Assembly (NCBI RefSeq): GCF_004010195.1
Contig: NC_057718.1
Location: 86,292,534-86,356,533 of the forward strand
Length of the DNA: 64,000 bases
Direction of reading: 5' to 3'
Origin: Chiloscyllium plagiosum
Lineage: Eukaryota
The translations under genes and the position numbers were made by a program. Every line of letters begins with the position of its first letter. Positions within the stretch are counted from its first letter, which is position 1. Of this stretch, positions 5,830 through 57,677 are shown in pieces. Below the pieces are notes generated by a model. The model was not told where the DNA came from and did no database searches. It worked only from the letters and a program-made list of their open reading frames with translations.

Positions 5830-5899
5830 CAGGAACTCCGAAGATTGCAAGAAAATGGTAGTAAGTGAAAGCTATCTGTTCAATTGTTGGTAATTCCAT
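5830..5899 (-). CDS. Exon 1 of a GPR139-like GPCR (exon 2 not in window)
   Basis: MELPTIEQIAFTYYHFLAIFGVP-G|gtaag, intact phase-1 donor; nearly identical to exon 1 at 55291-55360. Confidence 0.8.
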
Positions 5900-5961
5900 T
5901 TTCAAAGAGGGGGGCGATATCAATTGTTGTCCACAGATCTGAATCATCAGACATTCATCTG

Positions 5962-5968
5962 TTATATA
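5962..5968 (-). promoter_or_regulatory. Candidate TATA box
   Basis: TATATAA about 65 nt upstream of the exon-1 ATG; also present at 55422-55428. Confidence 0.4.
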
Positions 5969-6226
5969 AAGCAACTAAATCTCCCCTGTGATTTTGTGCG
6001 GTTGCAGAGAGAGTGAAATTAGTTTGCAGTCTTTGAACAAACAGGTACAGTTAATTTTAATAGATATTACACAATACAATCTTCACCTACACTGGAAGAT
6101 TGAAGGAGAACAATTGGGCCTGGTCCATCTCAGGGCTCCTTGCTCACTCTCTTAGTGCTCTCTACACGGATGCTCACACCATCCCTGCCTTGCCTTGCCT
6201 TTCTCACTTTGCCCCCTCACCCACAC

Positions 6227-9200
6227 AGTCAGAGAATCACAGAGCTGTACAGCATTGAAAAAGATCTTTTCATCCAACTTGTCCTTACTGATCAGATATC
6301 CTCTATTAATCTCATCCCTTTTGCCAGCATTTCACCCATATCCCTCGAAACTCTTCCAATTCATATACTAATCCAGATGCCTTTAAAATGTTGCTATTAT
6401 ACCAGCCTCCACCACTTCCTCTGGCAGCTTATTCCATACATTCACCACTCTCTGCGTGAAAAAATTGTTCCATTGGTCCCATTTAAATCTTTCATCTTTC
6501 ACCCTAAACCTGGGTGAATGACCTTGGCTATTTACTTTATCTATGCCCCTCATGATTATATAAACCTCTATAAGGTCACCCCTCAGCCTCCGAAACTCCA
6601 GGGAAAATAACCTTAGCCTTTTCAGCCTCTCCCTATAGCTCAAATCCTCCAAACCTGCCAACATCATTGTAAATCTTTTCTGAACCCTTTCAAGTTTCAC
6701 AACATCCTCCATGTAGCAGGGAGACCAGAATTGAACACAGTTTTCCCACATCCTGTCAAGCCACTCAACCATCCAATTCTATACTCAATGCCAATAAAAC
6801 CAAGTGTACCAAACCCCTTCTTCACTATCCTATCTACCTGGGACTCCACTTTCAAGGAACTATCAACCTGCACTCCAAGGTCTCTTTGTTCAGCAACACT
6901 CCCCAGGACCTTACTATTAAGTGTATAAGTCCTGCCCTGATTTGCCTTTCCACAATGCAGCACCTCACTTTTATCGAAATGCCACTCCTCAGTCCATCAG
7001 CCTATCTGATCAAGGTCCCTTTATACTCTGAGGTAACCTTCTTCCTGTCCCTTCCAAAACCAATGTTGGTGTCACCTTCAAGCTTATGAACCATTCCTCC
7101 AACATTCACCCTCAAATCATTTACATAAACTACAAAAAGCCATGCACCCAGCACCGATCCTTACAGCACACCGCTGGTCAAAGGCCTCCAGTCTGAAAAG
7201 CAATCCCCCACCACCATCCTCTGTCTCCAACCAATAAGTTGATTGTGTATCCAATAGGCAAATTCGCACTGTATTCCATGTGATCTAACCTTGCTAACCA
7301 GTCAAATATGCAGAACCTTGTCGAATGCCTTACTGACGTCCATGTAGGTCACGTCCACCACTCTGTCTTCATCACTCCTCTTCCTCACTTCTTCAAAAAC
7401 TCAGTCAAGTCAGTGAGACATGAGTTCTAACACACAAAGCCATGTTGAGTATCCTGAATCACCCATTGCCTTTCCAAATAAATCTAAGTCCTGTCCCTTA
7501 GAATTCCCTCCAACAACTTGCCTGCCACTGATGCTAGCCTCACTGGTCTATAGATCCCTGGCTTTTCCTTACCACCTTTCTTAAATAGTGGCACCACATT
7601 AGCCAAACTCCAGTCTTCTGGCACCTCACTTCTCACAGTCTATTAAATAATTATCTCAGCAAGGGGCCCAGCAACCACTTCCCTAGCTTCCCACAAAGTG
7701 CTCAGGTATATCTGATCAAGTCCCAGGGATTTATCCACCTTTATGCATTTTTAAATGTTCAGGACTTTGTCCTCTGTAATATGAACATTATTCAAGATGT
7801 CATTATTTATTTGTCCTTGTTACATATATCTTTCATATTCTTCTCCACAGTAAATAGTGTTCCAAATACTCGTTTCGTATCTCCCCCATCTCTTGCGGTT
7901 CCACATACAGAGGTAGCCTTGCTAATGTTTAAGGGCCCCTATTCTCTCCCCAGTTCCTTTTTTGCCCAATGTGAGTTTGCCAATTTCCTGTGAATTCTGC
8001 CTAACCCTACTTGCCAAGGCTATCTCATGCCCCTTTTTGCCCCCCTGTTTTCCCTCTTTAGTATATTGATTTTTTACTCTTCTCGGGATACACTCGATCC
8101 CTGCTGTCTATACCTGACATATGCTTGCTCCTTCTTTCATCGGAACATTCACTTCCTGAATCAGAAAATGATCTTATGCACACTTAACAAATTCCCCTCC
8201 ATCCAAACCCTTAACACAATGACAGTTCCAGTCTCGGTTTGGAAAGTTAAACTTCCCGAACATTATCACCCACCAGTTCTAACTGATAACTGAGATCTCC
8301 TTTCAAATTTGCTTCTCAATTTCCCACTGATTGTTGTGGGGGCCTGGTGATCATTCCTTTCTCATTTCTCAGTTTCATCCAGATAACTTCTCCGGTCATA
8401 TTCCCAGGAAGATCCTTCCTCAGTACAACTGTAATTTTATCCCTAACCAAAAAGGCCTCTCCATTCCCTCAGTTCTATTCTTCCTATAAGCATCTATATC
8501 CTGTAAAATTAAGCTGCCAGTTCTGTCCCTCCCTGAGCCAAGTCTCTGTAGTAGCTATGATATCCAGTCCCATTTTCCCAAATATACCCTGATTTCATCT
8601 GCCTTACCTGTCGGGACCCTTGCTTTGAAATAAATGCAGTTTAATTTCTGACACCTATCTCATTCTCTGCTTTGTTTCTGCCTGCACTGACTGTTTGACT
8701 TGTTCCTTTCCCCAGCTGCAACAGTCTCAGTCCGATCTCTTTTCTCATTGATCTCTCTGGGTCCCATCTTGTGCCCCTGACTAATTTAAATCCTCCCGAG
8801 AAGCCCCAACAAATCTTCCCAACAGTTTATTAGTCCCCTTACAATTCAGATACAATCTGTCTTTCTTATACAGGTCAATCCACACCAGAAAAATTCCAGT
8901 GATCCAAAAATGTGAATCCTTCTCCCCTGCAACAGCTCTTCGGCCACGTATTCATCTGCTCTATCCTCATATTCCTACCCTCACGAGCATATAGCAATGG
9001 GTGTAATCGAGACTTTACTCCCCTCAAGGACCTACTTTTTAACTCCTGCCTTATTTCCTGTATATTCTTCTCAGAACATCATCCTCTTCTTTTCCTATAT
9101 CGTTGGTTCCAATGTGCACAACAACCTCCTGCTGGTTCCTCTCTCCTTTAAGAATATTCTGAACTGACTCTGAGATATTCTTGACCCTGGAACCAGGGAG

Positions 9201-13424: not shown

Positions 13425-15448
13425 CTCCAAAGAAAAGAGCAAACTCTCCAAATTAATGACAGAGCATTGTTTGGAGGTTATAGCTCAACATTGGGTCATT
13501 TATTCTAACATGTCTGTGTGGGTCTTCTTGCTCCACAAGAACATGCACCCATGTCACTTCCTCTCAGATATCAAAATCAGAAGGTGCTGGAGAAACTCAG
13601 TAGATCTCGTAGCATTTGTGGAGAAAGAAACAGAGTTAATGTTTCAAGTCCAGTCCAGTAAAACTCTTCTTCAAAGCACTTCTTCAGGTTTCCAGCATCT
13701 GCATTATTTGACTTTAATATTAAAACGTTACTTTCCTCTTCACTTCCACAGTGACTAGCCCATAACTAATCAACTCACCATATCTGTATGGGGGTGGCAA
13801 TACTGCATAGATTACAATGAAGTAAATTCCTCCCTCAAATTGGGAAGTTTTATGAACATGACCTGGGACACAGGAATTTATAGACAGAAGAAGAGCAAAG
13901 TCTGTTGATGATTTGGAGATGCCGGTGTTGGACTGGGGTTACAAAGTTAAAAATCACACAACACCAGGTTATAGTCCAACAGGTTTAATTGGAAGCACAT
14001 TAGCTTTTGGTGTTGTGTGATTTTTAACTTTGTACACCCCAGTCCAACACCGGCATCTCCAAATCATGACTACTTTCAACACCACTAACCATCGGCTTAA
14101 AGTGGAGAGGATCTCCAAGAAGATCGCACATATCGACACAGACATCAAGTTTTTACAGGAATGCAGGCAAGCAGGAAAGATCCCAAAAGGATTACGGATC
14201 ACGAACCCACTTAAGTCGACCCACAACACAGACTACGCAGAGAGACTTTGCCACCGCACCTTTCGTAAACTCCTCAATCATCTCGTGCACCAACTCTACA
14301 GCAGGCACCACAACCTTAAAATTCAGATGGAGTCCACACTCTCAGCCTGCACTCAGGATACATCAGTACAATTATGTGACATTGCCAAACAGACAAGGCG
14401 ACAAAACTACACCACGTACATGCACGCCAAGAACAAAAAACTGGAGAAACTTGGCATTCTCACCAGTAATAGCAAAGCCCACCCTGGAACCGCAGTAGAC
14501 AACATTATCACTGTGGGGAAGTCTATTATCAACTTATCGGACCACACCCTTCGACCCACTCTACCGCAAACCCACAGACAACCTCACAATGCTACACTTC
14601 TCCAGCTTCCACCCAAAACATATTAAAACAGCCATTCCCTATGGACATGCTCTACGCGTATACCGGATCTGCTCAGATGAAGAGGAACGTGACGGACACC
14701 TGGAAGTACTCAGGGATGCCCTCACAAGAACGGGATACGATGCCCAACTCATCGGCCACCAGTTCCGACGTGCCACAGCATGGAACCGTAATGACCTCCG
14801 CAGGAGACAGACACATGCTGCAACCAACAGGGTACCCTTCATTGTTCAGTATTTCCCAGGAGCTGAAACATTACGCCATGTTCTTCGTGACCTGCAACAC
14901 ATTATCAATGAGGATGAGCACCTCACCAAGACCTTCCCCACACCTCCACTACTTGCCTTTAAACAACCGCCAAACCTCAAACAGATCGTTGTTCGTAGCA
15001 AGCTGCCCAGCTCTCAGGACAACTCCATACAACCCTGTCACGGTAGGCGCTGCAAAACGTGTCAGAGTGTGGACATAGATACCACCATTACACGTGGGGA
15101 GACCTCCCACCTTGTACATGGCAGGTACTCATGTGACTCAGCCAACGTTGTCTATCTTATACGTTGCAGGCAAGGATGCCCGGAGGCATGGTACATTGGG
15201 GAAAATGAGCAGAGGCTATGACAACGGATGAATGGGCACCGCACAACAATCAACAGACAGGAGGACATTCGACCTCAGACCTTCGGGTGACCATCCTCCA
15301 AGGTGGACTTCGGGACAGGCAGCAGAGAAAAGTGGCCGAACAGAGGCTGATAGCTAAGTTTGGTACCCATAGGGAGGGCCTCAACCGGGACCTTGGGTTC
15401 TTGTCACATTACAGGTGACCACCATTGCACTATATACACACACAGATA

Positions 15449-15711
15449 GGTAAAAACAATGACTGCAGATGCTGGAAACCAGATTCTGGATCAGTGGTGC
15501 TGGAAGAGCACAGCAATTCAGGCAGCATCCGAAGACAGGCAAAATCGACGTTTCNNNNNNNNNNNNNNNNNNNNNNNNNNNNNNNNNNNNNNNNNNNNNN
15601 NNNNNNNNNNNNNNNNNNNNNNNNNNNNNNNNNNNNNNNNNNNNNNNNNNNNNNNNNNCTGTCTTCGGATGCTGCCTGAATTGCTGTGCTCTTCCAGCAC
15701 CACTGATCCAG
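15449..15711. mobile_element. Nested inverted-repeat insertion of a second Penelope-like family (centre in gap)
   Basis: Reverse-complement arms on either side of the N-run; 15-bp TSD atacacacacagata (15434-15448/15712-15726). Confidence 0.75.
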
Positions 15712-16385
15712 ATACACACACAGATACTCCTACACACACACACACAGAGGCACTCCTATACACATATACACATGGACACACATATACACAGACACACACA
15801 CAGACACCCACACACATCCTTACAGACACACACACTCCCACACTCACACATGCACCCCCTCACAGACTTAAGACACTCTGCACTCACTACACACACACAT
15901 TCTCACACTCACAACCCCCAACCCAGACAGACAGACACACACACACAGACACAGACAAAGACCCATATGCACACATATATGTTGTGGGGTGAATTTGTAC
16001 TTGCAGGGTTACATTGTACTTTGCTCAAAAACTGCATGCATTCATGTAGAACTCTGAGCTCAGAAGCTGCATGAATTTATGTAAAACTCCGTTATCTCAC
16101 TTTTTAGATTAGAATCAATCTAAACATCATGGCATAGACAGAGAACACAGGGGACTAACACCTTCAACATATTGTCTAGCTATCACCATTGTTAACAGCT
16201 AATCTGAGAATGCAACTTTTAAAAAAAAGGTTTTATGATTTACACATCAAAGAAGTGAAACTATCATGATAGTCTAACAGATGAAAGTCTTAACAGACAA
16301 TCAATTTTTCAATGTATAATTTCAGTTACATCACACTGTAAATTTTTGCTATAAATTCTGTGTGTTAGGATTGAGCCCTCCACTA

Positions 16386-16421
16386 CCACCTGATGAAGGA
16401 GCGACTCACCGAAAGCTAGTG
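16386..16421 (+). ncRNA. Minimal type I hammerhead ribozyme motif in the Penelope 3' terminal repeat
   Basis: cac-CTGATGA-aggagcgactcacc-GAAA-GCTA-gtg: conserved core, palindromic AGCT stem III, CAC/GTG stem I; duplicate near 18893-18928. Confidence 0.7.
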
Positions 16422-16869
16422 TGCTTCCAATTAAACCTGTTGGACTATAACCTGGTGTTGTGTGATTTTTAACTTTGTAGTCTGTTGAGTTTGCCTTCTC
16501 CCATCCTGATATTTGCATGTTCCAGGATAATGAGGTTGTTGATTAATCATAGGGATCAATCTTTATCCCATGGATCGACAGCAGACCCAGACATATATGA
16601 GGCAAGGAAAACCTGCAGTGGTAGAATCCTCTCAAGCTTGGTTAATTTATCATTAATCTCCTCCCAAACATCTGATACTAAATGCCAAAATGTTTGCTGA
16701 GAGAGAATAAATTTAATAAATAGCAGAAAGAGTTGTTAATTGAAAGAATATCCTGAAAGTGAACTCAGCGCAGAGAAAGACTGAGGTGTCGTACGTTGAA
16801 GGATACATCAAGAACAAGAACAGACTGAAAAAGTGATTCAGATAAAAACAATCAGGTTTAGCTTCTTCC

Positions 16870-16939
16870 CAGGGACTCCGAAGATAGCCAGGAAATTACA
16901 GGAAATGTAAGCTGTCTGTTCGATTATCGAGCGTTCCAT
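16870..16939 (-). pseudogene. GPR139-like exon 1 of pseudogene B (dead donor)
   Basis: MERSIIEQTAYISCNFLAIFGVP-G|ggaag (GT changed to GG). Confidence 0.8.
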
Positions 16940-17443
16940 TAGACCCAGTTTTTTGGGAGCAGAGATGACAGAAATCAATGAAGACTGACCCTGAATCACC
17001 AGGTGTTCTCTGTTTGTGACAGTTCCCTAAACATTTGGCTATCCTGTTTCTGAAAAATAGAAATAGTCTGAAAAATGAATAAAAAATAGGACCATGTTTC
17101 TGTTCCCCGAGACCATTTGCTCAGCTCTAATCTGCAGCATCAGTGCAGGAACTCTCCACATGCCACGATAGATACAGAGGTTCCTGCCATGTTGTTACAA
17201 TGCAGTTTAACACAGTTATTACTCATTTATCTGAGACTGTTTATTCTGCANNNNNNNNNNNNNNNNNNNNNNNNNNNNNNNNNNNNNNNNNNNNNNNNNN
17301 NNNNNNNNNNNNNNNNNNNNNNNNNNNNNNNNNNNNNNNNNNNNNNNNNNNNNNNNNNNNNNNNNNNNNNNNNNNNNNNNNNNNNNNNNNNNNNNNNNNN
17401 NNNNNNNNNNNNNNNNNNNNNNNNNNNNNNNNNNNNNNNNNNN

Positions 17444-19757
17444 CCCACACCTCCACTACTTGCCTTTAAACAACCGCCAAACCTCAAACAGATCGTTGTT
17501 CGTAGCAAGCTGCCCAGCTCTCAGGACAACTCCATACAACCCTGTCACGGTAGGCGCTGCAAAACGTGTCAGAGTGTGGACATAGATACCACCATTACAC
17601 GTGGGGAGACCTCCCACCTTGTACATGGCAGGTACTCATGTGACTCAGCCAACGTTGTCTATCTTATACGTTGCAGGCAAGGATGCCCGGAGGCATGGTA
17701 CATTGGGGAAAATGAGCAGAGGCTATGACAACGGATGAATGGGCACCGCACAACAATCAACAGACAGGAGGACATTCGACCTCAGACCTTCGGGTGACCA
17801 TCCTCCAAGGTGGACTTCGGGACAGGCAGCAGTGAAAAGTGGCCGAGCAGAGGCTGATTGCTAAGTTTGGTACCCATAGGGAGGGCCTCAACCGGGACCT
17901 TGGGTTCTTGTCACATTACAGGTGACCACCATTGCACTATATACACACACAGATAGGTAAAAACAATGACTGCAGATGCTGGAAACCAGATTCTGGATCA
18001 GTGGTGCTGGAAGAGCACAGCAATTCAGGCAGCATCCGAAGACAGGCAAAATCGACGTTTCNNNNNNNNNNNNNNNNNNNNNNNNNNNNNNNNNNNNNNN
18101 NNNNNNNNNNNNNNNNNNNNNNNNNNNNNNNNNNNNNNNNNNNNNNNNNNNNNNNNNNNNNNNNNCTGTCTTCGGATGCTGCCTGAATTGCTGTGCTCTT
18201 CCAGCACCACTGATCCAGATACACACACAGATACTCCTACACACACACACACAGAGGCACTCCTATACACATATACACATGGACACACATATACACAGAC
18301 ACACACACAGACACCCACACACATCCTTACAGACACACACACTCCCACACTCACACATGCACCCCCTCACAGACTTAAGACACTCTGCACTCACTACACA
18401 CACACATTCTCACACTCACAACCCCCAACCCAGACAGACAGACACACACACACAGACACAGACAAAGACCCATATGCACACATATATGTTGTGGGGTGAA
18501 TTTGTACTTGCAGGGTTACATTGTACTTTGCTCAAAAACTGCATGCATTCATGTAGAACTCTGAGCTCAGAAGCTGCATGAATTTATGTAAAACTCCGTT
18601 ATCTCACTTTTTAGATTAGAATCAATCTAAACATCATGGCATAGACAGAGAACACAGGGGACTAACACCTTCAACATATTGTCTAGCTATCACCATTGTT
18701 AACAGCTAATCTGAGAATGCAACTTTTAAAAAAAAGGTTTTATGATTTACACATCAAAGAAGTGAAACTATCATGATAGTCTAACAGATGAAAGTCTTAA
18801 CAGACAATCAATTTTTCAATGTATAATTTCAGTTACATCACACTGTAAATTTTTGCTATAAATTCTGTGTGTTAGGATTGAGCCCTCCACTACCACCTGA
18901 TGAAGGAGCGACTCACCGAAAGCTAGTGTGCTTCCAATTAAACCTGTTGGACTATAACCTGGTGTTGTGTGATTTTTAACTTTGTAGTCTGTTGAGTTTG
19001 CCTTCTCCCATCCTGATATTTGCATGTTCCAGGATAATGAGGTTGTTGATTAATCATAGGGATCAATCTTTATCCCATGGATCGACAGCAGACCCAGACA
19101 TATATGAGGCAAGGAAAACCTGCAGTGGTAGAATCCTCTCAAGCTTGGTTAATTTATCATTAATCTCCTCCCAAACATCTGATACTAAATGCCAAAATGT
19201 TTGCTGAGAGAGAATAAATTTAATAAATAGCAGAAAGAGTTGTTAATTGAAAGAATATCCTGAAAGTGAACTCAGCGCAGAGAAAGACTGAGGTGTCGTA
19301 CGTTGAAGGATACATCAAGAACAAGAACAGACTGAAAAAGTGATTCAGATAAAAACAATCAGGTTTAGCTTCTTCCCAGGGACTCCGAAGATAGCCAGGA
19401 AATTACAGGAAATGTAAGCTGTCTGTTCGATTATCGAGCGTTCCATTAGACCCAGTTTTTTGGGAGCAGAGATGACAGAAATCAATGAAGACTGACCCTG
19501 AATCACCAGGTGTTCTCTGTTTGTGACAGTTCCCTAAACATTTGGCTATCCTGTTTCTGAAAAATAGAAATAGTCTGAAAAATGAATAAAAAATAGGACC
19601 ATGTTTCTGTTCCCCGAGACCATTTGCTCAGCTCTAATCTGCAGCATCAGTGCAGGAACTCTCCACATGCCACGATAGATACAGAGGTTCCTGCCATGTT
19701 GTTACAATGCAGTTTAACACAGTTATTACTCATTTATCTGAGACTGTTTATTCTGCA
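17444..19757. repeat. Near-identical copy of 14937-17250 (offset 2507), gap-flanked
   Basis: Almost identical sequence with an internal gap at the same place; few substitutions. Confidence 0.9.
19377..19446 (-). pseudogene. GPR139-like exon 1, duplicate of 16870-16939
   Basis: Same sequence and GG donor. Confidence 0.75.
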
Positions 19758-20796
19758 NNNNNNNNNNNNNNNNNNNNNNNNNNNNNNNNNNNNNNNNNNN
19801 NNNNNNNNNNNNNNNNNNNNNNNNNNNNNNNNNNNNNNNNNNNNNNNNNNNNNNNNNNNNNNNNNNNNNNNNNNNNNNNNNNNNNNNNNNNNNNNNNNNN
19901 NNNNNNNNNNNNNNNNNNNNNNNNNNNNNNNNNNNNNNNNNNNNNNNNNNNNNNNNNNNNNNNNNNNNNNNNNNNNNNNNNNNNNNNNNNNNNNNNNNNN
20001 NNNNNNNNNNNNNNNNNNNNNNNNNNNNNNNNNNNNNNNNNNNNNNNNNNNNNNNNNNNNNNNNNNNNNNNNNNNNNNNNNNNNNNNNNNNNNNNNNNNN
20101 NNNNNNNNNNNNNNNNNNNNNNNNNNNNNNNNNNNNNNNNNNNNNNNNNNNNNNNNNNNAGAAACAGAGTTAATGTTTCAAAAGACTTCTTCAGGTTTCC
20201 AGCATCTGCATTATTTGACTTTTATATCAAAATGGTATGTTCCTCTTCACTTCCACCGTGACTAGCCCCTAACTGATAAACTCACCATATCCATACGAGG
20301 GTGGCAATACTGCACAGAGTACAATGAAGTAAATTCCTTCCCCAGACTGGGAAGTTTTATGAACATGACCTGGGACACAGGAATTTATAGACAGAGGAAG
20401 AGCGAAGACTGTTGAGTTTGCCTTCTCCCATCCTGATATTTGCATGTTCCAGGATAATGAAGTTGTTGATTAATCATAGCGATCAATCTTTATCCCATGG
20501 ATCAACAGCAGACCCAGACATATATGAGGCAAGGAAAACCTGCAGTGGTAGAGTCCTCTCAAACTTGGTTAATTTATCATTAATCTCCTCCCAAACACCT
20601 GATACGAAATGCCAAAATGTTTGCTGAGAGAGAATAAATTTAATAAATAGCAGAAAGAGTTGTTAATTGAAAGAATATCCTGAAAGTGAACTCAGCGCAG
20701 AGAAAGACTGAGGTGTTGTACGTTGAAGGATACATCAAGAACAAGAACAGAGTGAAAAAGTGATTCGGATAAAAACAATCAGGTTTAGCTTCTTCC

Positions 20797-20866
20797 CAGG
20801 GACTCCGAAGATAGCCAGGAAATTGCAGGAAATGTAAGCTGTCTGTTCGATTATCGAGCGTTCCAT
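20797..20866 (-). pseudogene. GPR139-like exon 1 (paralog or allele lacking the Penelope insertion)
   Basis: MERSIIEQTAYISCNFLAIFGVP-G|ggaag; adjacent intron matches 13625-13905 + 16479-16870. Confidence 0.8.
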
Positions 20867-23596: not shown

Positions 23597-23615
23597 TAAA
23601 CTCAGTGAATTATAT

Positions 23616-28630: not shown

Positions 28631-28651
28631 TGCTTTGAATGTTGAACATAC

Positions 28652-29986: not shown

Positions 29987-30375
29987 ACTGTGTGACTCAG
30001 TCCAAGCTCCCTGCCCTGTGCAGGATACAACATTGTCACGGTGTTGTCCTTAGGCCTTTTTCCTCAGCAAAGTGTCCTTCTTTAAAAAAACATGTAGGGT
30101 ACCTTTATGTAGTTCTACAGAATCTCATCATCTTCAAAATAAATCCTTGGATCACAGCCCTTCTAACAGTGTACATTACACAATTACTCAACTTGGTCAA
30201 CATCTGAACTTTCTTGTTTTGTTAGCAAACTGAATAATTTCCACTCTCCAAATCCAGATATCCTTCCTAAACTGGGAACAGTGACTCTAACATTAACTGT
30301 AACTGGATTGTTTTGGACCATAATTTCCAAACAATATTGTGTTATTAATCTGGGATTCTGTTCTTTTCTTTGTAG

Positions 30376-30899
30376 CTAACTTCCTGACAATTGTCCTTCT
30401 AATTTGTGGAGGCTGTGGTCTGTCCAAAGGGATCACTCTTTATTTGGTGGGTATGACGAGAATTGATCTCCTGGTCTTTATTTCCAATGTGATAATCTAC
30501 TACATGCTTTACTATTATTTCCCATTTTCATTTCTACATTTCACCTCAATAAGTACCATCAATGAGGTTATCAACTACACAGCTGTTGACTGCTCTGTTT
30601 GGCTCACGGTCGCTTTCATTGTCGATCGCTTTGTCCTCATTTGTTGCCAGAGGTTGAGAGCAAAGTATTGCAGGGAGGAGACTGCAGCTGTGGTGATAGT
30701 GACTGTGTGTGTTGTGTTTTCATTCAAAAACATCCCCCTGTATTATGCTATTGAGTGAATCTGCATAATAAACAATGTGGAGTGGGGCACTCATTTCAAA
30801 CCAGACTACTTTACCTTACCAGGATGGATAACCTTTGATTGGCTTCACAAAATTTTAAACCCACTATTGCCATATGTTTTCATTTTCCTGCTCAATGCA
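30376..30899 (+). pseudogene. GPR139-like exon 2 5' half, pseudogene C (inverted relative to the cluster)
   Basis: Acceptor tttgtag|CT AAC; very similar to the intact gene; TGA at 30756-30758; truncated after TM5 'FLLNA'. Confidence 0.9.
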
Positions 30900-46076: not shown

Positions 46077-49000
46077 TGTTATGGTCCAGATCAAACCCTC
46101 TCAGAATATATTAAGAAGACAGTCCAGAACCTAACAATTTCTTATCTTAAAGGTAAGTGTAAGGCATTGAATTGCAGATGTAATTTGATTGGTCAAGCTA
46201 ATTGAAGTTAAGCAAGACACACTTTATTTTTACTTGACAGTTAAAATACAGACAAAATAAAAATGAAAGAATTGGCTTAACTTTAACATGATTGAAATGC
46301 TTAAATTAATAGATATTATTAACTACTGTTCATAAAATGTTCCAATATAATAACATTCCATAAAAACAAACTTGGCAAACGCATATCCAATAAAACAGAT
46401 TGTCTCACATGCAATTCTAGTAGCAGGAAGAGAACCCCAGTTTTTAGCTGTAACAGAGAGAGGGACAAGAGCTTCAAGACCCCAGCAACCACAGAAAGGT
46501 AAAGCTAAAAGTCCTGGTGCAGCTGGAGCTTGACCCCAACCATTCAGGCTGCTTCTATTATTCCAACTTTTTAAAAATCCTAAGCCTTCACAAGCTGCTA
46601 CTCTGTTGGGTTTGGAGCAGACTTTGCAGCACCTCTGTCTCAACCTTTCTTCATTAAAAAAAGTATAGAATGTATCTTTTAAAGCCAAAGCATCATCACA
46701 CCTCCCCACTTAAAAATACACCATTAATCTACAAAGATGGCTTCATTTTTGAAAACCTTTAGTCTGACACTATTAGTACCCCAGGATGCATCTACATTAC
46801 ACTGACTCTCAGCATTACTACAGTGCATTTCAGTCTGTTTTATCCCACCACAGGACAACTCTGTCTTCCTTCATCAAAGTCATGACAACACGTCAGCAAT
46901 TACGTATGTGATTTCCAAATTCAATGCCTGCAATAGCAAGTTGAATTGAAAGAACCTGGAATTTTTATCCATATTTCTTTCCAAAAACCTTAAGGGATTA
47001 TGATCAGTATATACAATTGTCTCAGACACATTACTGATAACGTAAGTGTTGAAATGTTGCAATGCCATCACCAAGCTCAAGGTCTCCTTCTCAATTGTGG
47101 AATATTTCTGTTGATTATTCTCCAATTTTCTGGAAAAATGTCCAATAGATCTTTTTATCTTCTTGTTATCTTCTTCCAAGTGTTCAGCATTGACACTCAC
47201 ATGACTCGCATCAATAGCCATTTTGAATGGCTTTATGTGATTAGGTGTGGCTAACTCTAGGGCGGTGGATAACACAATTTTCAGGCTGTCTTCTGACAGT
47301 CTGTTGTCCATTGAACATTTCTGCACTTCTTCAATAATTCAGCCAGTGGAGCAACCATACAGCTAAAATTTGGCAAGAACTTCTGATGAAAACGATTCAG
47401 CCTCAGAAATAATAGTACTAACATCAGTGTCGATGGTATGGGAAACTCCCCAATAACCTTTGCTTTCACATCCCATGGGACGATCTGTCTGTGTCCAATA
47501 ACATAGCCCAAAAACATGACTTGGGCTTTTTGGAACTCACTCACTGGGTTTATCACCAAACCTACCTCCCAAAGTCCATTGAACAATTCCGATTGATGGT
47601 CCAAATGTTCCTTCCACATGTGACAAAAATCACCAGGTCATCAACACCACTGGGCAATCCTGAAATGTCTTTGTTGATTCACCTTTGAAATGTGGCTAGC
47701 ACATTTTTCATTGCAAATGGCATGACTTTAAGCTGATACAGTCCATTTGGCATCACAAAAGCCAGAATTTTCTTCACTCTTTCAGATAAAGGTACCTGCC
47801 AGTATCCTCTGTGTAAGTCCAACTTAGAAATATAAGTTGCTTATCCCACCTTCTCAATACAGTCTTCCAAACGTGGAATAGGATATGAATCAGACTTTGT
47901 GACAATCTGCACTTGATCATTGGGTACCATCTGATTTTGGCAGCATCACTATGGGGGAGTTCCATTCACTGCAACTTGCTTGATTATATTGTCTTTCAGC
48001 ATGCAGTCAATCTTTTTTTGAACCTGTTCCAAATTTGGAGGGTTAAATCTATAAGCATGTTGTTTAATGGGAACAGCATTTCCTCTATCTACATCATGCA
48101 CAATCAGATTAGTACTTCCAAGCTTATTTCCACATATCACCCCATGTGTTTGTAATAACTCTTTCAGGTCATTTTAATTTCCCTCTGGAAGTTATCCAAT
48201 GACCAATGTCTCAGTAATTAATTTCACTGACCGTTTCATCTCATGGCTAAAAAACTCATCAAAATGGACTGAATGTAGTTACTTTATCAGGTGCACTCCT
48301 AACTGCAAAAAGTACAAATGGAGTTTCTTTATCACAATCCTCTAAATCGTTATGACTATAAGCTGTCAACATGGTCTTCAAAGTTTGCAGCCACAATTCT
48401 AATGCTCCATGTGATTCTCAGTGGACTTAAATTGTTTTATTCTTCAGTTATTGGTAACTTCATTGTATAATTTTGATGTAATATCTGCCCCTTGATCGAA
48501 TTGTATTTCTGTGAGTAGTCCATTTCTAGTTTTAAAAAATTTGAGTAAATATTCTACAGTTCTTCAAAGCAAGATACTGCGTAATGGAACGCCCTCTGGA
48601 AATCTAGTAGATACATCCATTACTGACACTTATGACATGACTCACAAATTTTAACCATGCAGGCCAATAAAAATGCCTTTGTATTTTGGCTTGAGTTTTC
48701 CTTACTTCCAAATAGCCTCCAATGGGAAATTCATGTGCTATCCACAACACCTCCTTTTTATAACCCAATGGTAATATAACTTGATGAACTTCTGCCCATT
48801 TCATATCCACCTGAATATGGCCTCCATTTCCTCATCAAGATGTCATTTTAAAGATAGTGACATTCTAGCACACATTAAGATTTTTCTTCTGTATGTGCCT
48901 TTTATTACAAATCTTTAGTTTTTCATCTTCCTGTTATAATTCAGTTAATTGCTCTGAAAGAAAAGTATCCACTTTGTCCTCCACTTGTTCGTGTTTCTTT

Positions 49001-49600
49001 TCTCAACTGTTTAATCAAGCATGGTTTCTGATAATTGTACTTTCAACCTCTGCATCTTTATTCTTTGATTTCTCCTCTTACTTGAACCTGTGGCTTTGTG
49101 ACCTTGTTAACACGCAGTCAGGAAAAATCCCAGGATATATTTCCTGTAACACCAGTTGTCTGGTTTTCCACTGGCTTTTCAACCACAGTAGGCTTCACTC
49201 CCACCTGTGTTTGAGCTATATCATTACCAAGGATAAATTGTATTCCTGGAACCAAGAATTTCTCTATTATTCCAACCAACACTTCTCCATTTGCCACCTG
49301 ACTCACCAACTTCACTTAATATAATGGAACACTGCTCTTCTCACCATGAATGCCACATGTTACCACGTTTCTTGGCAATACTTCTTCTGCGACATACCAC
49401 ATATCTCCTCATCTCTCACCAGCAAAGATTGACTTGCTTCTGTATCTTTTAAAATTTAATTTCTTTACCTGCTCCTCCTAGCATACTGAAGTAAACGTTA
49501 CCCTTGCAAGAAAATCCTTGAAAGTAATCTGGCAGTTTCTTCTCAACCACCCCCTGAGCAGGTTGCACATTCTAATACGGCTTTTTTAATCTTCCATATG
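46077..49600 (-). mobile_element. Gmr1-like Gypsy element (PR-INT-RT-RH, PPT, 3' LTR 46077-46700)
   Basis: Integrase 'WAEVHQVILP..AHEFPIGG' precedes RT 'PIKQHAYR' and RNaseH 'IDASH..YSTIEKE..TDHNPL'; PPT aagtggggagg next to a TG..CA LTR. Confidence 0.9.
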
Positions 49601-50204
49601 GAACTATCTCCTTCACTATTGCTACATCAAGCTGCTGGAATTCCCTCACTTTGATCATCGTGGGTCACCCGAAAGCAGGACTGCAGCACGTCACTACCAC
49701 CTTTTGAAAGGCAATTCGAGACAGGCAATAAATACAGGCCTAGCCATCAAGACACACATCCTGGAAGTAAAGAAAGAAACCTACACAAACCACACGGTAA
49801 TTTAAAAATGAGTCATTGTTGTAATGCAGCAATTAATCTGTACACAGAGAGACCTCACATTCAACAATAAGAGAAATGATCAAACAATCTGCTGTCAGCG
49901 ATGGTGGTTAGAGGATAAGTATTAGCCAGAAGACCATGGATGACATCACTGCTAGTCCTCAAAGGAGGGCTGTGGGAAATGTTACACCCAATGAGGAGCG
50001 TGGACTGGTGTAGTGTTACCAGCTCATCTGAAGTGGAATTCTGTCAGCCTCAGTCATGTGCTTGATCACATGACCCTGTGATGCAGAGGTGAGAATATCA
50101 GCACAGAGTGAAGACTATTATTTACAGTTAACATCGAACGATGAGGAACAATTGTACACAGGATAATATAGATTGATATGAATGCTTTGCAACCTTTTTA
50201 CCAG

Positions 50205-51124
50205 TCATGCAATGAAAAAGTATTTGACGCATTTAATAATTGCAAGGAATGGAGACATTATTGCAATTCGCAACTGTTCTCTGAATTTAGACTGAGCGAA
50301 TGCATAAACGCATGTGTTTGTACAGGAACTCAGCAGTTGAAACATATCGCCAGTATATTCTGCAATAAGTAAGGGATCCATATAATGATCTGGTTCATAA
50401 AATGTATCTGTAATTCTAGAAATGAGGAAAAATATAGCGTATGGCATCCACAGCACGATGAAAGTGCCAGAAATGGCGAACAATAAAGTGATGGATTTCC
50501 TTCGGCTCTGCATCTCTGGATCGTCGCTGTTCTGGGTGTTGCGTTGACCTTGCAGAGCTCTGCGGGTTCGATTGGCCATCACAATGTGTCGAACAGTCAG
50601 TGCATTGAGCAGTAAAATGAGAAAGTATGGCAATAGTGGGTTTAAAATTGTATCAAGCCAGTCAAAGGTTATCCATTCTGGTAAGGTAAAATAGTCCGGT
50701 TTTAAATGAGCACCCCATTCCACATTGTTAATTATATAGATTGGCTCAAAAGCATAGTACACGGGGATGTTTTTGAATGAGAAAATTATCATTACAATCA
50801 CTGTAACCACAGCTGCAGTTTCCTCCCTGCAATACTTTGCTCTCAACCTCTGGCAACAAATGAGGACAAAGCGATCGACAGTGAAAGCGACCGTGAGCCA
50901 AACAGAGCAGTCAACAGCTGTGTAGTTGATCACCTCATTGATGCTCCTTATTGAGGTGAAGTGTAGAAATGAAAATGGGAAATAGTAGTAAAGCATGTAG
51001 TAGATTATCACATTGGAAATAATGACCAGGAGATCAACTGTCGTCATACCCACCAAATAAAGAGAGATCCCTTTGGACAGACCACAGCCTCCACGAATTA
51101 GAAGGACAATTGTCAGAAGGTTAG
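50205..51124 (-). CDS. Exon 2 of intact GPR139/GPR142-like class A GPCR (gene A)
   Basis: tttgtag|CT AAC; uninterrupted 7TM frame with TVDRF, LNPLLP, RRKSI..LWMP, SSCTNTCVYA..KFR; 329 aa when joined to exon 1. Confidence 0.92.
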
Positions 51125-51929
51125 CTACAAAGAAAAGAGCAGAATCCTCAGATTAGTAACACAACGTTGCTTGGAGCTTACAGCATGAAACCACTTTTTG
51201 GCCCAATGGGTTTACACTGAGGTTCATACTGCACGTGTTTCCTCCCACTGACTTCATCTTACAATATTGAGATATTATTTCTTCCATCCACATGCATTTA
51301 CTGAATTTCCCATCAGGCAAACTCACAAATGTGAAGAAATATTGCACAGATTGGAAGGAAGCAAATTTCTTTCTCAAACCAGAATCCCTTTACAGGAATG
51401 AATTGAGTGGGTGTTCCCCCCCCCCCCCCCCCTCCACAACTTTGCCTTATGTCTGTCTATAACTAAACAGAAGAGTGGGTGAGGGTGGGGTTTGGGAATG
51501 GGCTGCCTCCTTTGAACATTGACAAACTTTAAAAAATTGAAGCTCTTTCTCAGCTCAACTGACCACAATTGTACAGGATCCATTCTATTTTACAGAGATT
51601 GCACACACAAATCAGTATGGGGAGAAGGCTTTCCCAGCAGTATGATGTTAGGGGCTTTGAGACACTCTCCAGGGAGTCTTTGTGACAAATCAGTTCCAAT
51701 TCCCTGATGGGTGTTCAGTGTCTGCGGCTTTCATGCCTCCAGCTCTTTGTAATCATTCATTTTAGTTTTAAACTGAGTTTTAATGATCACCCATGGCACT
51801 GAGCGTTTGTGCCTCCAGCTCTTTGTAAGCATTAGATTGAGATGTTTACAGTGGGCTGTAAGCTCCTGTACAACACTGTATGATGGAGGGAACATTGGCA
51901 AGGGTTTGGTGTGCTCACACCTACATCAC

Positions 51930-52400
51930 GTTCACCACAGATAAGGTTCACCAGACAGGAAGATGGCCACAGGATTCAGGAATCTTGCTGGATTCTCAAA
52001 ACTGGAAGGTGTCATCGATTACAAGCATGTTGCTGTTCAGGTTTTAGTGAGACAACCCGGGGCATTTGTAAATATTAAAGGGGTTCACTCCCTAAGTGTC
52101 CAATTAGTCAGCAATTATTGACAAAAGCTTCTCCAGGTATCTGTGTCTATTCCAGGGAGGGGTCATGACCCATACAACCTTCAACACCTCTCGGTTCCAC
52201 AGTGGACAATGTACCATAGTCTTTGGAGAGATAGATTCTGGGAGGGAATGGCTGTCTATTGCAGAGATGGCTCATGAACTCAGCAAAACAACACAAATCA
52301 GATGTTATATCGTATTGCAATAAGATTCTCGCAAACTCCAAGTCTATCTGGCAAAAGGATTAACATCCTGCTCAACACCACAATGTCACCTCAAGCTATG
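51930..52400 (+). mobile_element. Decayed Harbinger transposase in the intron of gene A
   Basis: GFRNLAGFSKLEGVIDYKHVAV..FVNIKGVHSLSVQLVSNY*..PGRGHD matches the HARBI1 GaIDctH..NRKGfHSinvQ..PGs.HD pattern. Confidence 0.8.
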
Positions 52401-53084
52401 ACCAGTGACAGGACCATTGTGTATATGGCAAAGGTAAGGCAGGTACTGAAAAGGATGTTGGGACACACACCATCAACAAGCCCAGGTTAGTAAACCCTCA
52501 AGTCAACATCCATCCCCAAGACCAGCCAAACGAACAACAGCAATAACTACACATCCATCCTCATGTGCATGTATTTAATGAAGGTTATCAGCAATACCAT
52601 TCCTGTAAAGACATCATAAATTATTCCCCGTGTTCTCCCATACAGACTCAGTGTGATTTCTTACATTGTTCCTGCCTGCTGCACTGTATCCTTCCCCATG
52701 TGCTGCCAGTTGTCCTGAGGGCAGGCGGCTGACTCTAACATCCTTTTGTCTGGAATGGCCTTGAGGGTGGTCCTCTGTTTGGCTGAGTCTGTCTGGACCC
52801 TGACATGGTGAGGCTCTCCTTCACAGTGTCAGGGACCTCCTTCATCACCATGGCTCTCTGAAGCACTGGTGTCAGTGGCAGAGGGTAGAGGAGTAACTGT
52901 CCCCATCAGGAGTGCCCTGACAGGTACTTCCCGATGGTGACTGCTCCACCACATGTCCCACTCTGAGGCTCACTTGGCCCTCTGTACTTTCATAACTGAG
53001 AGACAATGACCTGGCAATGAGTTCAGATAATTCCATCCTCTTTTCTCTTGCTCCTTGAGTTCTGTGACAGTGCAATGGATCACA

Positions 53085-53660
53085 GTAACCTTAACTCGAT
53101 CCCGGACTTTTACACACATCTTGAACCAAAACGACCCAAACCTCATCCTCACCTTCAAGCAAGCCCTAACCTTAACCCTCATCCTATGCCTAACCCTAAC
53201 TGTAACCCCAACCAAACCTGAAACCTAACCTGAACACGAAACAGAATCCCACTTCCAAACCTAATCCTCACCACATTGCTAACCATTACCCTAACCATAG
53301 ACCTCAAACATGCTTTACCCTTTCCTGAATTCGAACCAAAATCCTAAACATAACCAAACCACAAATGCAACGATAGATTGAAGGGTTCCTAACTTTAACA
53401 GTGAAACCTAACACTAACGCTAATGGAAATATTCAACCAAACATTAAACCCACCCTAACCCTAACCCTGAGCCTAACCCTAACCCAAGCCATAATCCTAA
53501 CACCTCCCCTAACCCGAACCCTAACTTGAGCACACAGTTTTAACCCTGATCCTAGCCATAACCCAAAACATTCCCTCACACTAATCCTATACCTAACACT
53601 AATCCTATACCTAACACTAATCTTAACACTAACCCAAACACGGACCCAAACCCTATTGCA
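53085..53660. repeat. Degenerate (CCCTAA)n telomere-like array
   Basis: ccctaaccctaa runs with hexamer periodicity. Confidence 0.75.
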
Positions 53661-55290
53661 AATCAGAATGCACACTTCACAGCACCTGATGAAGGTGTAT
53701 TCCTGACCTGGATCGTCTCCTCCACTGTCCATTTGATGTTGTACAAGCACTTCTGAAGCTCAACCGATTGCACATCCAGTATCTGTCACACAACAGACAG
53801 CTCCAGAGGCTCATCACCATCAGACTGGGGCACAGCATCTAGTCAGCTTCCACCATTGCTGTCAGTGTCTGAGGGCTGCACGATCAGCTTTCACCCGAGA
53901 TTGGGATGTGCTTGTGACCACCCCCCACCCCCCTACACCTCAGCAGATGTGCACAAACCCATCAAGATGTGATGCTTCCTCAGACACAAGCCCAAAGCCC
54001 CTGTATAGCTCCCTGTTCCCCCTCAGTGGGCAATACTGCTCACTGAGGAGTGGTTACAGAGATCATCTGTTAATCTGTTATTAAAAAGAAGAGATTAATG
54101 ATGATTACATCTTCATCTGTGATCATTTAAGAGGACACATGCCCTCTCTGTGAAATCAATTGAACAGTGTTACAAACATCTCCATTTCAGAGGATGTGCC
54201 AACGTTCTCTCTCTGCCAATGGTGACAGTATCTCTGTTCTTCTGCCCTTCCTTCCTGGAGTAAGCTTGGTCCTTCTGAATCTTACCTTGTGTACTCCCAT
54301 TCCTGCCCCTCAGCCTCCAGCCTCCCTGTGAGTCTCCAGGTGAGTGACCAACTGCAACATCTCCTCCTCCTCCATCAGAGTCAATTTGGCCACACCTCCA
54401 CTGGTCCTCGTTCTCTCACTCAGCCTCTTGCAGCACGTCAACCACATTGACCAGCTACACCCACATCTACTGTCTGCCTCTGCCAACATCTGCTCGATAA
54501 CTGTGACACAGAGGAGGGCTCACTCCTCGACCTTAGGCCTGCCCTGGACGGGGTGGATTATATCTCCACCTTGGCAAAGGGGTTGGTGAAAGATGGCACT
54601 GTCACAGGAGACACCAGGGTTTAAGTTCACAGTCTAACCTGCTCCCTCAACAATAAAGGTTCGGAACTCTCAATGCTGCCTCCCCACAGCTGAAGGATAT
54701 TTACACAATCCCACTTCCCCTCAGCTGCCTGCTCATCCCCACAGCCCTGTACAATGACGGCCAGAGCTGACTTGCTGTTCACGGCCTGACCCTTCTCCCA
54801 GTGGATACCTGTCCTCACCGTGTGCTTCACTGAGGAGGGCCCTGGCACCATGTGACTTGGGTGACCAGCACTTGGTCCCATTGTGAAGATCGTTCAGGTG
54901 TGTGAGCACGTGGACTGGGCACTATCCCATCGACCTGCCTGATCCCACTGACCAACATCAAATCCAGGCCCATGACCCAGCAACAGACCCAGACACATGG
55001 CGCTAAAAACCCAGTCAGAGAGAGCTTTGGGATCCAGAAATCTGAAAGTACCTGTTCCTCCCAGACAAGGACCATTTAGCACACGTCAGGTCACAGATTC
55101 CGCAAGTCCTCATGGAACTAAACTAAAATTCACAAATTACAGCATGAGCTGTTTCTTGTAGGAACACCTGAAACTGGATCCAGCATGAGGAGAGAAAGAG
55201 GGAGGGTTTATACACTGAGAGATATATCACGGGAAAGAACAGAGTGAAAGTGGGATTGAAAAGATAACACAACCTGCTTCAGCTTCTTAC

Positions 55291-55360
55291 CAGGAACTCC
55301 GAAGATTGCGAGGAAATGGTAGTAAGTGAAAGCTATCTGTTCAATTGTTGATAATTCCAT
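55291..55360 (-). CDS. Exon 1 of intact GPR139-like gene A
   Basis: MELSTIEQIAFTYYHFLAIFGVP-G|gtaag joins exon 2 in frame (GVP-A-NLL), like the GLP-ANIL segment of GPR139; in-frame upstream ATG at 55414 also possible. Confidence 0.88.
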
Positions 55361-55421
55361 TTTCAGAGAGAGGATGATATCAATTGTTGTTGACAGATCT
55401 GAATCATCAGACATTCATCTG

Positions 55422-55428
55422 TTATATA
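55422..55428 (-). promoter_or_regulatory. Candidate TATA box of gene A
   Basis: TATATAA about 65 nt upstream of the ATG. Confidence 0.4.
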
Positions 55429-57677
55429 AAGCAACTAAATCTCCCCTGTGATTTTGTGCAGTTGCAGAGAGAGTGAAATTAGTTTGCGGTCTTTGAACAA
55501 ACAGTCACAGTTAATTTTAATAGATATTACACAATACAATCTTCACCTACACTGGAAGATTGAAGGAGAACAATTGGGCCAGGTCCATCTCAGGGCTCCT
55601 TGCTCGTTCTCTTAGTGCTCTCTACACGGATGCTCAAGGCGTCCCTCCCACGCCTGGCCTTTCTCATTCTTTTCCCCCAACCAAAGCTTAAAGACTCACA
55701 ATATTTCTGTCATGTCTTCCCTTTGGTGCAGACACAAAGCCAGACAGTTTGGTGTGGTTTCCAGCCGTCATCAGTCAAGGGAGCGGACATGTTGCTGTGC
55801 AGCACCGCACTACATCGATCTTACACCCGCACCATGTGACAACAGTGTCCAGTTTGTATGAATGGTGTCATCCAAAGAGGCGTAAAGCAAATGGCAGGTT
55901 ATTGGTATCATTGACAGTCACACATCACAACACACCTGATGCATACAGACATTTCCTTGGCAAGTCTTCTGAATCTAGATTTCTTCTCTCTTTCGAGAGC
56001 CTACTTTGCTTGATCTTGCATTTTCTGTTTCCGAATCTGCATTAACTGGGTCCTTTGGTTAACCACAACAGTCTTTGTTTTTGGCAGAATCCATGTGAGG
56101 CATCATGGATCAATTTCAAAGCTAAGAGCCTCTAATCTACCTGAGACTAAACTAAAGCTCCACATTTTTAGTCCTTAATATAATCCACAATACAGTCACC
56201 TCTGACAATGTGTGTCTTTATAAATAAACAGATGGATAAACATTGCTTTATACACAGCAAACTTTGGATTAGCCGGCACCATGTGAACTGGCACTTTCAA
56301 TAAACCAGCAACAAGTATATCCCTGAAATATCATCGCAATCTCCGCAAAGCCTGAAGGTGAAAGTGAAAAGGATCTCTGTTGGTAAATTTTATTTAAGGC
56401 AACATTACATTATTACTGAAGTGATTTTTGCAGCAAATAAAGGATAACAGTGATGTGCATATCCTCATATTGCGTTTCTATTACTGAGTGTGTTTTTACA
56501 TTGGTTGTTTGAACCTCTTGATCGACAAGATTGTTTGATCAACTAATCCACTCCTGGTCCTCCAGGTGCTGGGTAGTCAAACGTTTGCTGTACTCGTCTA
56601 GAATACAAGGTGACGATGCTGTCACTTTAACAGTTTATTTTCTCCTCTTGTTCTTTGCAGAGAAGTTGGAAGGCCAAGGTACGGAGCTGTCTCACAGAAA
56701 GTAAACAATTTGCGAGGCCTTAGGGTTAGTTTTAAGGTTGGAACAATGGAAGCAGCCTGGGTGTGGCCAGCTCGCACACACCAGGCTTTCTCCTTTTTTT
56801 CACTGATTTGGTTCAGTTTTAATCAGAAGCCTTTGGGGTCTCAAAAGAGTTGGGAGTACATTGAATATCTCCTAGATGCTACTTTCTTTGAATTTTCTCT
56901 TGATATTTTTCCTCCTGGATGGGAGAACTGCATGTGAGAGTCTGTGTCTGAATTTGCCTTTTTGCCAAGGGCTGTGTTTATGGGATGTTACTATACTGGA
57001 ACAGTTAAAAAAGGAAACTTACTGTATTGATTATTTGATTAAGTTTTCCAACAGTTGAAGTATTCTCAATTCCTCTTTCTTTTGGTTGTATTTTAACTCT
57101 AATTTTTAAATCAATTTTGTTTTGCTTAATATCGAGTAGTTTGATCAGTCACATTGCACCTGGAACACATTTACCTTTAAAATAAGAAAAGGTTAGGGTC
57201 TAGGCTACCTTCTTAAAATAATTTGAAGCGGTCTGGTCTCGTACATAATCTTGTCAAGACTGAAATCTATAATTCAAGGTTGGGTTTAGGATTGTTGGAC
57301 CCAAAGGCAACGAGAGGTAATTGTTGGTGCCTTTTATTTTGGGTATTGAATTCATTTGGTTTAAGCAGGGTGTGGCTTGTGTCGTAATGGATCATTCTGT
57401 TATGAAGAGTTTTCTGGGGCTGGAAGAAAGGGGTTTAAATAAAAGTGATCAAGGCACAGCTTTTGGAATTGGTAAAGAGGCTGGAGTTGGGGTTGCCTGG
57501 GTCTGCAAGGAAAGGGGAGGTAGTTGTGGCAATTGCACAACATTTAAAATCATCAAAACTACCATCAGAATCTTTGGAAACGGCTAAAATTCAATTGTTA
57601 ATGAATCAGTTTGAATCAGAGGCAAAAGATAAGGAAAGGATACCTTGGCAGAAGAAAAAGTCAGAGAAAAAGCGACT

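Follow-up and report, generated by a model that had tools for sequence, protein, structure and literature searches.

What are the receptors that shark genome annotation names 'probable GPR139', and what might they sense? We address this question for a stretch of 64,000 nucleotides of the Chiloscyllium plagiosum genome (contig NC_057718.1, positions 86,292,534 to 86,356,533; hereafter the window), in which a sequence-only reading had seen at least five loci of one two-exon family of class A G-protein-coupled receptors (GPCRs) resembling GPR139 and GPR142, and had proposed a lineage-specific chemosensory repertoire. The cluster contains one intact gene, gene A, which belongs to a large and apparently undescribed radiation of chondrichthyan GPCRs. 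That this family is a repertoire of sensors for outside chemicals, with a broad chemosensory role, is in our judgement about an even bet, given the comparisons set out below.

Gene A lies on the minus strand and encodes, without a stop, a protein of 329 residues in two exons, which are separated by an intron of 4,166 nucleotides. Homologues of its first exon are present in the relatives P0002, P0003, P0007, P0009 and P0013. The two-exon model is also supported by a putative RNA contig of a relative (X1, depth 4.5), in which an exon-1 homologue is joined in frame at the exon-2 acceptor; in another contig, X2, a different upstream sequence stands at this acceptor. The database model of gene A, P0001, starts at an internal methionine in exon 2 and, at 280 residues, lacks exon 1 and the first transmembrane helix (TM1). 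The same truncation is seen in the models of several relatives. Within the intron, a degenerate GGTTAG-like tandem repeat extends over 53100-53660.

Gene A is a class A (rhodopsin-like) GPCR. Pfam profile 7tm_1 matches it with 55 bits (cut-off 30.5, E 1e-14), and at E≤0.01 the two proteins that we scanned had only 7tm_1 and a sub-threshold Srx match, with no OR, TAAR, V1R, T2R or V2R profile. The AlphaFold model of exon 2 has seven helical segments and helix 8, with a predicted local confidence (pLDDT) of 90.9. Its Foldseek matches were all class A, but the search did not discriminate within this class: opioid, somatostatin, C3a and GPR139 structures scored alike (TM-score 0.64-0.72), with GPR139 ranking 13th and 23rd by E-value. 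The activation motifs N1.50, D2.50, DRF, P5.50, LWMP and NTxxY are all present in gene A. Across 184 family sequences, D2.50 and DR3.49-50 are found in 99% each, P5.50 and F6.44/W6.48 in 98% each and Y7.53 in 96%, the motifs as a whole being kept at 90-99% except for P6.50 (15%) and P7.50, where 93% have threonine. The N-terminus is short: of the 92 family models in which N1.50 could be placed, 73 have it at residue 20-28. The cysteine pair between TM3 (residue 83) and the second extracellular loop (ECL2) is missing in gene A and in most of its shark subfamily; 86% of the family keep it, and its TM3 member, C3.25, was apparently lost independently in gene A and in human GPR139.

To see how far the family extends, we used a word-index search of proteins clustered at 90% identity, taking sizes at E≤1e-20 among 2,693 candidates and identities from the best 120 matches. 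At this threshold 1,327 proteins match gene A. One of the best 120 is the window's own, and the other 119 are without exception chondrichthyan (sharks, skates and chimaera); nearly all carry the automatic name 'probable GPR139'. These best 120 of 1,327 include at least 49 horn shark matches on 16 contigs, 18 of them on a single contig. At least 52 annotated horn shark paralogues, 46-93% identical, keep the activation motifs. Of the family representatives that we looked up, 14 of 16 were from named chondrichthyans and two had no organism label. The horn shark paralogues and the pseudogenes in the window thus bear out one part of the sequence-only reading: this is a cartilaginous-fish family that evolves by birth and death and is present in many copies in each genome. 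The genes are already catalogued in RefSeq, but misnamed. Searches on GPR139 or GPR142 together with sharks found no paper describing the family, most subscription papers being beyond reach. The string 'GPR' does not occur in the main text of PMC11979771, PMC8455134, PMC10620051, PMC10116579 or PMC13113109, and no family match was found in the supplement files searched of PMC7677710, PMC10116579 and PMC8455134 (12 of 24 files for the latter).

Within this family, gene A shares 77-80% identity with the catshark, white shark, horn shark and sawshark models; with a model from chimaera it shares 60%. Its closest non-self matches among those listed are from carpet sharks (zebra shark 88%). Gene A, the window loci C and D and the intact relative P0012 group in one subfamily with proteins of catshark, white shark, horn shark, sawshark, sevengill and chimaera. 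This grouping, including chimaera, has support of 93.6/99 (approximate likelihood ratio test, SH-aLRT / ultrafast bootstrap, UFBoot) in a maximum-likelihood (ML) tree of 46 sequences and is also recovered in a tree of 207. Gene A is thus no transient copy: its subfamily is an old, long-kept one that sharks have in common with chimaera, and the window therefore shows local duplication and decay around it, beside a distant second subfamily (locus B).

Next we considered GPR139 itself. Human GPR139 is the best match among solved structures, both to gene A (E 1.1e-6) and to a profile of 62 family members (E 2.3e-20), on which it scores 75.9 bits and the next PDB sequence 52.9. GPR139 and GPR142 have been grouped with the protostome receptors for MIP, FMRFamide, proctolin and myosuppressin (PMC8514136, PMC12208981; published work is cited throughout from the accessible portions of each article), and judging from sequence the family belongs to this branch (GPR139 / MIP-FMRFamide), with GPR139 as its nearest human receptor. 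This proximity, the RefSeq name and the presence of two exons in both would fit true GPR139/GPR142 orthologues, or recent duplicates of them, that sense Trp and Phe. We consider this explanation very improbable and largely refuted by sequence. Gene A and human GPR139 share about 70 identities over 298 residues by hand count, about 23-27%, whereas GPR139 orthologues, which have two exons, are 70% identical between human and zebrafish (PMC7318219). The same profile, run against 1.84 billion representatives, had 140 matches at 1e-30, and GPR139 scores lower on it than a salamander gene (227 bits), a paralogue group of coelacanth, teleosts and crocodile (up to 208), amphioxus proteins named 'GPR139' (125-142) and unnamed peptide-receptor-like proteins (111-121). 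Moreover, it is a single-copy gene, compared to six or seven loci within 50 kb in the window and at least 52 paralogues in horn shark, and the pocket residues differ. Activation of GPR139 by Trp and Phe depends on F109, H187, W241 and N271 (PMC5430874; see also PMC8807744); at these positions and at R244, gene A has Y91, D181, W249, D283 and Y252, respectively. In the family, the equivalent of W241 is tryptophan in 98%, while histidine is kept at H187 in 13% and asparagine at N271 in 8%. Since two of the four residues for Trp and Phe are Asp in gene A, and H187 and N271 are rarely kept in the family, the GPR139-like aromatic amino acid ligand that the sequence-only reading had entertained is not supported, whereas its suspicion that these are not true GPR139 orthologues was right as far as identity, profile score and pocket residues can tell. 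The judgement that the family does not consist of GPR139/142 orthologues relies on these three because both our trees lack the canonical receptors, no usable GPR139 or GPR142 protein having been returned by the word-index and profile searches.

The closest relatives outside the cartilaginous fishes came from elsewhere. We computed a bootstrapped ML tree from 46 hand-picked sequences, 29 of them of the family, and a FastTree of 207 sequences, leaving out representatives that covered <235 profile positions (60 kept). In the former, the 29 family sequences form one clade (87.6/92), whose sister is a clade of amphibian and sturgeon proteins (51/90); the FastTree has the same topology. We hold with moderate confidence, on the strength of these sequence comparisons, that this amphibian-sturgeon gene is the nearest outside relative. 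Searching with the salamander gene, we found matches in 19 more amphibian clusters at 66-74% identity, each named species being represented once. The other matches were a single protein from sturgeon (46%) and four from cartilaginous fishes (32-33%). No amniote or teleost match was found in this word-limited search, in which a match needs shared words and absences are weak. The proteins concerned (P0220, P0291-P0310) belong to a conserved orphan GPCR, apparently single-copy and automatically named GPR139, which occurs in frogs, salamanders, a caecilian and sturgeon. The proposal that the family has no relative in bony vertebrates had to be rejected on account of this sister gene, and the term lineage-specific thus applies to the expansion, not to the lineage itself.

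Two further groups deserve mention. The paralogues of coelacanth, teleosts and crocodile (P0230, P0234, P0254, P0256, P0264, P0267) are GPR139-like proteins distinct from human GPR139 (E 1.8e-18 to it for the coelacanth protein) and usually lack W6.48 and P6.50. Amphioxus P0260 starts at the position equivalent to the exon junction of gene A and sturgeon P0310 lacks TM1, observations that bear on the intron position only indirectly. In the ESM Atlas we found the same automatic name, along with srw-like and invertebrate clusters, which we treat as leads only.

We then compared how the binding pockets vary. Over the 184 sequences, mean entropy is 2.23 bits at 32 pocket-facing sites, 1.96 at 62 other sites in the extracellular half of the TM helices and 0.95 at 108 intracellular TM sites. 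The corresponding values are 0.40, 0.69 and 0.40 bits within the 17-member A subfamily, and 0.25, 0.59 and 0.65 bits in seven amphibian and sturgeon sequences. The contrast between paralogues and orthologues is accordingly larger for pocket sites (1.85 bits) than for other extracellular TM sites (1.26 bits; p=0.004). When the pocket is reduced to 12 sites, all 52 of 52 horn shark paralogues differ from each other, while the 12 sites of gene A are identical in chimaera P0020. Six acidic residues give the pocket of gene A a net charge of -4, compared to +2 for locus B and a range of -7 to +5 in the family. Aspartate or glutamate occupies position 3.37 in 91% and position 5.42 in 64% of the family, and in the TAARs of teleosts Asp5.42 contacts the amine (PMC4695389). 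From the pocket variation, the acidic charge and this parallel, we infer that different subfamilies may bind different ligands and that gene A is likely to bind a cationic one (an amine, a polyamine, a basic amino acid or a basic peptide) rather than Trp or Phe.

We located the loci by self-comparison of the window and by tblastn with its longest GPCR-like open reading frame (ORF). They gave E-values of 1e-21 to 1e-97, whereas the best E-values in ten of ten shuffles were 0.46-8.2.

Table. Receptor loci and exon copies in the window (positions counted from its first nucleotide).
Feature	Position	Strand	Description
Gene A exon 1	55360-55291	minus	70 nt, phase 1, GT donor; N-terminus and first half of TM1
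Gene A exon 2	51124-50205	minus	remainder of TM1 through stop codon
Locus B exon 1	38687-38606	minus	82 nt, phase 1, non-canonical GC donor
Locus B exon 2	36445-35573	minus	divergent subfamily; one 2-nt deletion near 36215
Locus C	30326-30899	plus	inverted partial duplicate of gene A acceptor and exon 2 (TM1-TM5)
E2	23595-23273	minus	decayed 3' fragment (third intracellular loop, ICL3, to TM7), A subfamily, indels; adjoins long terminal repeat (LTR) retroelement remnant
E1	22487-22150	minus	decayed 3' fragment (ICL3-TM7), indels
Exon-1 copy	20797..20866	minus	dead GG donor; 16 differences in 772 bases to the copy at 16939
Exon-1 copy	19377..19446	minus	identical to the copy at 16939, dead GG donor; inside 14937-19950
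D exon 1	16870..16939	minus	dead GG donor
Pseudogene D exon-2 remnant	13422-12970	minus	TM1-ECL2, four stops; ends after ECL2
Locus F exon 1	5899-5830	minus	intact GT donor

Not all of these are separate genes. Within 14937-19950 a unit of 2,507 bp occurs twice with three mismatches and an identical gap of 104 N at the identical offset (618). Because the gap, its offset and the sequence all recur, the assembly has very probably doubled a single locus here, so that exon 1 appears at both 16939 and 19446 through a scaffolding artefact. The copy at 20866 may, from its sequence, be an allele or a recent duplicate, and the three copies with a GG donor probably all belong to pseudogene D. Exon 1 of F lies within a duplicate of the 5' region and intron of gene A (1017-6216 against 51810-55678, 83-96% identity), which is interrupted near the left window edge, from position 1017, by sequence resembling a long interspersed element (LINE). 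Exon 2 of F thus probably lies beyond this edge, as far as the sequence indicates, and F therefore need not be an orphan first exon. We accordingly rejected a count in which all four matches to exon 1 only would be separate genes.

This leaves six or seven independent loci (F, D, E1, E2, C, B and A), in agreement with the minimum of five in the sequence-only reading, and the distribution that it described, of one intact gene (A), one with a single frameshift (B) and truncated pseudogenes (C, D, E1 and E2), was found as well. Its orphan first exons are real as copies of exon 1, with the reservations just given for one of them and for F. The short N-terminus and the phase-1 intron in TM1, which it had ascribed to all loci, are seen in A, B, F and D, and C keeps the position of the acceptor; E1 and E2 lack the region.

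Locus B is 44% identical to gene A. Its closest relative is P0184 of the epaulette shark Hemiscyllium (82%), whose annotated model spans the site of the deletion in B; B is likely to be a pseudogene or to contain an assembly error. Locus C, in contrast, is 90% identical to A in DNA, but has one stop, ends within TM5 and has no exon 1 that we could find in the window; over 172 codons its synonymous divergence from A (dS) is 0.19 and the ratio of nonsynonymous to synonymous divergence (dN/dS) 0.38. Pseudogene D is closest to the intact P0012, and the blocks containing E1 and E2 are 93% identical. The spacers contain LINE-like and LTR-retroelement remnants. Pfam matches were obtained for four of eleven spacer ORFs scanned (an endonuclease below its cut-off, integrase twice and RNase H) and for none of the other seven. 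Three decayed LTR-retroelement remnants, at 23665-26207, 46880-49600 and 58600-61600, are related to each other (67-77% DNA identity), and the integrase and RNase H matches lie in the first two. The ORFs at 14499-15221 and 41918-43107 resemble what we take to be C-terminal domains of Penelope-type retroelements, although the two that were scanned had no Pfam match at 1e-3.

How, then, might such a family have arisen, and for what? We propose that the chondrichthyan family expanded from a single orphan gene on the GPR139 / MIP-FMRFamide receptor branch, while a single-copy sister of the ancestral gene would survive in amphibians and sturgeon. Each subfamily would bind its own ligands and signal through a common intracellular face. 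The cluster in the window itself shows local duplication and decay among retroelement remnants. The predicted site of expression is an epithelium with a chemosensory or barrier function (nose, taste buds, skin, gill or gut). Consistent with a sensory repertoire, we found a large clustered multigene family with pseudogenes, whose pocket is variable among paralogues and conserved among orthologues. Published shark repertoires comprise OR, TAAR, V1R, V2R and T2R; the catshark has 34 V2R and four to nine receptors per family in the other three, and sharks have a keen sense of smell although few receptors are described (PMC10116579); they are also poor in GPCRs overall (PMC8455134).

A number of results weigh against this sensory proposal. 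Clearly intact loci amount to only one of six or seven in the window. The pocket analysis itself has limits: generic residue numbers were set from TM motifs, not from model coordinates (the S62V mutation of the GPR139 construct served as a check), and the entropy tests count related sequences as independent. Tree-based site rates are 1.32 for the pocket and 1.18 for other extracellular TM sites (p=0.30), and we therefore rejected the claim of a higher evolutionary rate in the pocket than elsewhere in the extracellular half. Because pocket rates are not higher, much of the variability may reflect relaxed constraint on the whole outer half. An endogenous ligand would explain the deep conservation of the gene A pocket just as well. 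The RNA evidence comes from four of 22 listed runs mapped to 49600-55700; as run tissues are given as codes, it does not bear on sensory expression. Both X1 and X2 skip 51053-50560 (minus strand), a GT..AG intron of 494 nucleotides whose two sites are present in gene A; this internal splice shifts the frame and removes TM2-TM5, yielding a non-coding form. The one confirmed RNA sample with reads, the single-cell run X11, had 102 that mapped among 13.0 million records; most of them cover 50407-50684, and their loose ends match the paralogue P0012. About 85 of these paralogue reads, from a tissue-coded sample, are apparently antisense and none is sense. On the plus strand an AATAAA lies within the region coding for ECL2 and is followed 13 nucleotides later by a run of A (8 reads), and three reads have an adapter-like 5' end, which we take to be an adapter. 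Together with the orientation of the mates, these features indicate an antisense polyadenylated RNA, which could be regulatory or incidental. Run X12, from the same sample, had no reads at 49600-55700, which we did not weigh as a test. Lastly, all olfactory neurons of the catshark appear to be Go/TRPC2 microvillous cells, in which V2Rs already explain the robust expression (PMC10116579), leaving less room for a nasal role, and among the genes most specific to the brain and olfactory library of the catshark, the top 50 include no GPCR (PMC11979771).

Two other explanations share much of this evidence. The receptors might be innate-immune or irritant sensors on leukocytes, mast-like cells or somatosensory neurons, responding to microbial or damage peptides and to cations in the manner of mammalian formyl-peptide receptors and MRGPRs. 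This we consider somewhat improbable, although it predicts the same pattern of variable pockets, conserved inner face and birth and death. Acidic pockets would suit cationic peptides, for which MRGPRX2 presumably offers a parallel. Further, the receptors of this branch are peptide receptors (PMC8514136), and sharks lack MAS1 and its relatives (PMC8455134), so that the irritant-sensing role might be vacant in them; the fold search, on the other hand, does not single out chemoattractant receptors, all structures scoring within the same range. Alternatively, a few old subfamilies such as A might serve endogenous ligands, with copy number due mostly to neutral duplication in repeat-rich, slowly evolving genomes and most copies silent or decaying. 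The broken or incomplete state of five or six of the six or seven window loci, among retroelement remnants, would fit, as would the pocket of A unchanged between shark and chimaera, the antisense or frameshift-spliced RNA, and pocket rates not above those of other extracellular sites. We nevertheless regard it as unlikely: at least 52 horn shark paralogues, 46-93% identical, keep their activation motifs, and relative to the mean the rate is 0.49 for intracellular TM sites, compared to 1.2-1.3 for extracellular ones, a gap not expected from neutral decay.

The family, with 52 or more distinct members in a single shark, is no smaller than the known chemoreceptor set of the catshark. A sensory role would change how shark chemosensation is understood and give vertebrate chemoreceptors one more independent origin; an immune role would make the family an unrecognised recognition system. 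Possible, though tentative, is a stronger form of the sensory proposal, in which this would be a fifth major vertebrate chemoreceptor family, exceeding the shark V2R set, of independent neuropeptide-receptor-type origin, with ancient subfamilies for amines or basic peptides and an unexpanded sister kept by amphibians and sturgeon. Such a family would overturn the view that sharks smell with a few dozen receptors. Practical entry points to the ligands are the A subfamily shared by chimaera and sharks and the single sister gene in Xenopus.

Among known systems, the RefSeq models of sharks, rays and chimaera named 'probable G-protein coupled receptor 139' are the same set of genes, their names being automatic. 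GPR139 itself is the nearest human receptor by sequence and resembles the family in its class A seven-helix fold, its two exons, the W6.48 and aromatic 3.33 present in gene A, and the common branch with MIP, FMRFamide and proctolin receptors. It differs in H187, R244 and N271, which are D, Y and D in gene A, in the absence of C3.25, which most family members keep (86%), in the shorter ECL2 and ICL3, and in being a single conserved gene of the central nervous system rather than one of tens or more per genome. The amphibian-sturgeon gene has a short N-terminus and common motifs in TM1-ICL1, TM3 and ICL3-TM6, yet it is only 27-33% identical to the shark family, carries N at 2.50 and has a basic pocket (net +3), compared to -4 in gene A. 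A comparable history has been described for nematode srw receptors, a birth-and-death expansion from the same neuropeptide-receptor branch for which sensing of environmental peptides was proposed (PMC2576165); several A-subfamily proteins have a precomputed match to the Srw profile PF10324. The nematode expansion is nonetheless independent, and the srw function itself is speculative in that article. The receptors of the OR, TAAR, V1R/ORA, T2R and V2R families differ from the shark family, which lacks D3.32, has a coding intron in TM1 and matches only 7tm_1 in Pfam; by sequence it belongs to none of OR, TAAR, V1R, T2R and V2R, given the Pfam result for the two proteins scanned and the lack of D3.32. 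With these families it nevertheless shares tandem clusters, pseudogenes and pockets that vary between paralogues, with the class A chemoreceptors also a short N-terminus, and with the clade III TAARs of teleosts a frequent Asp5.42.

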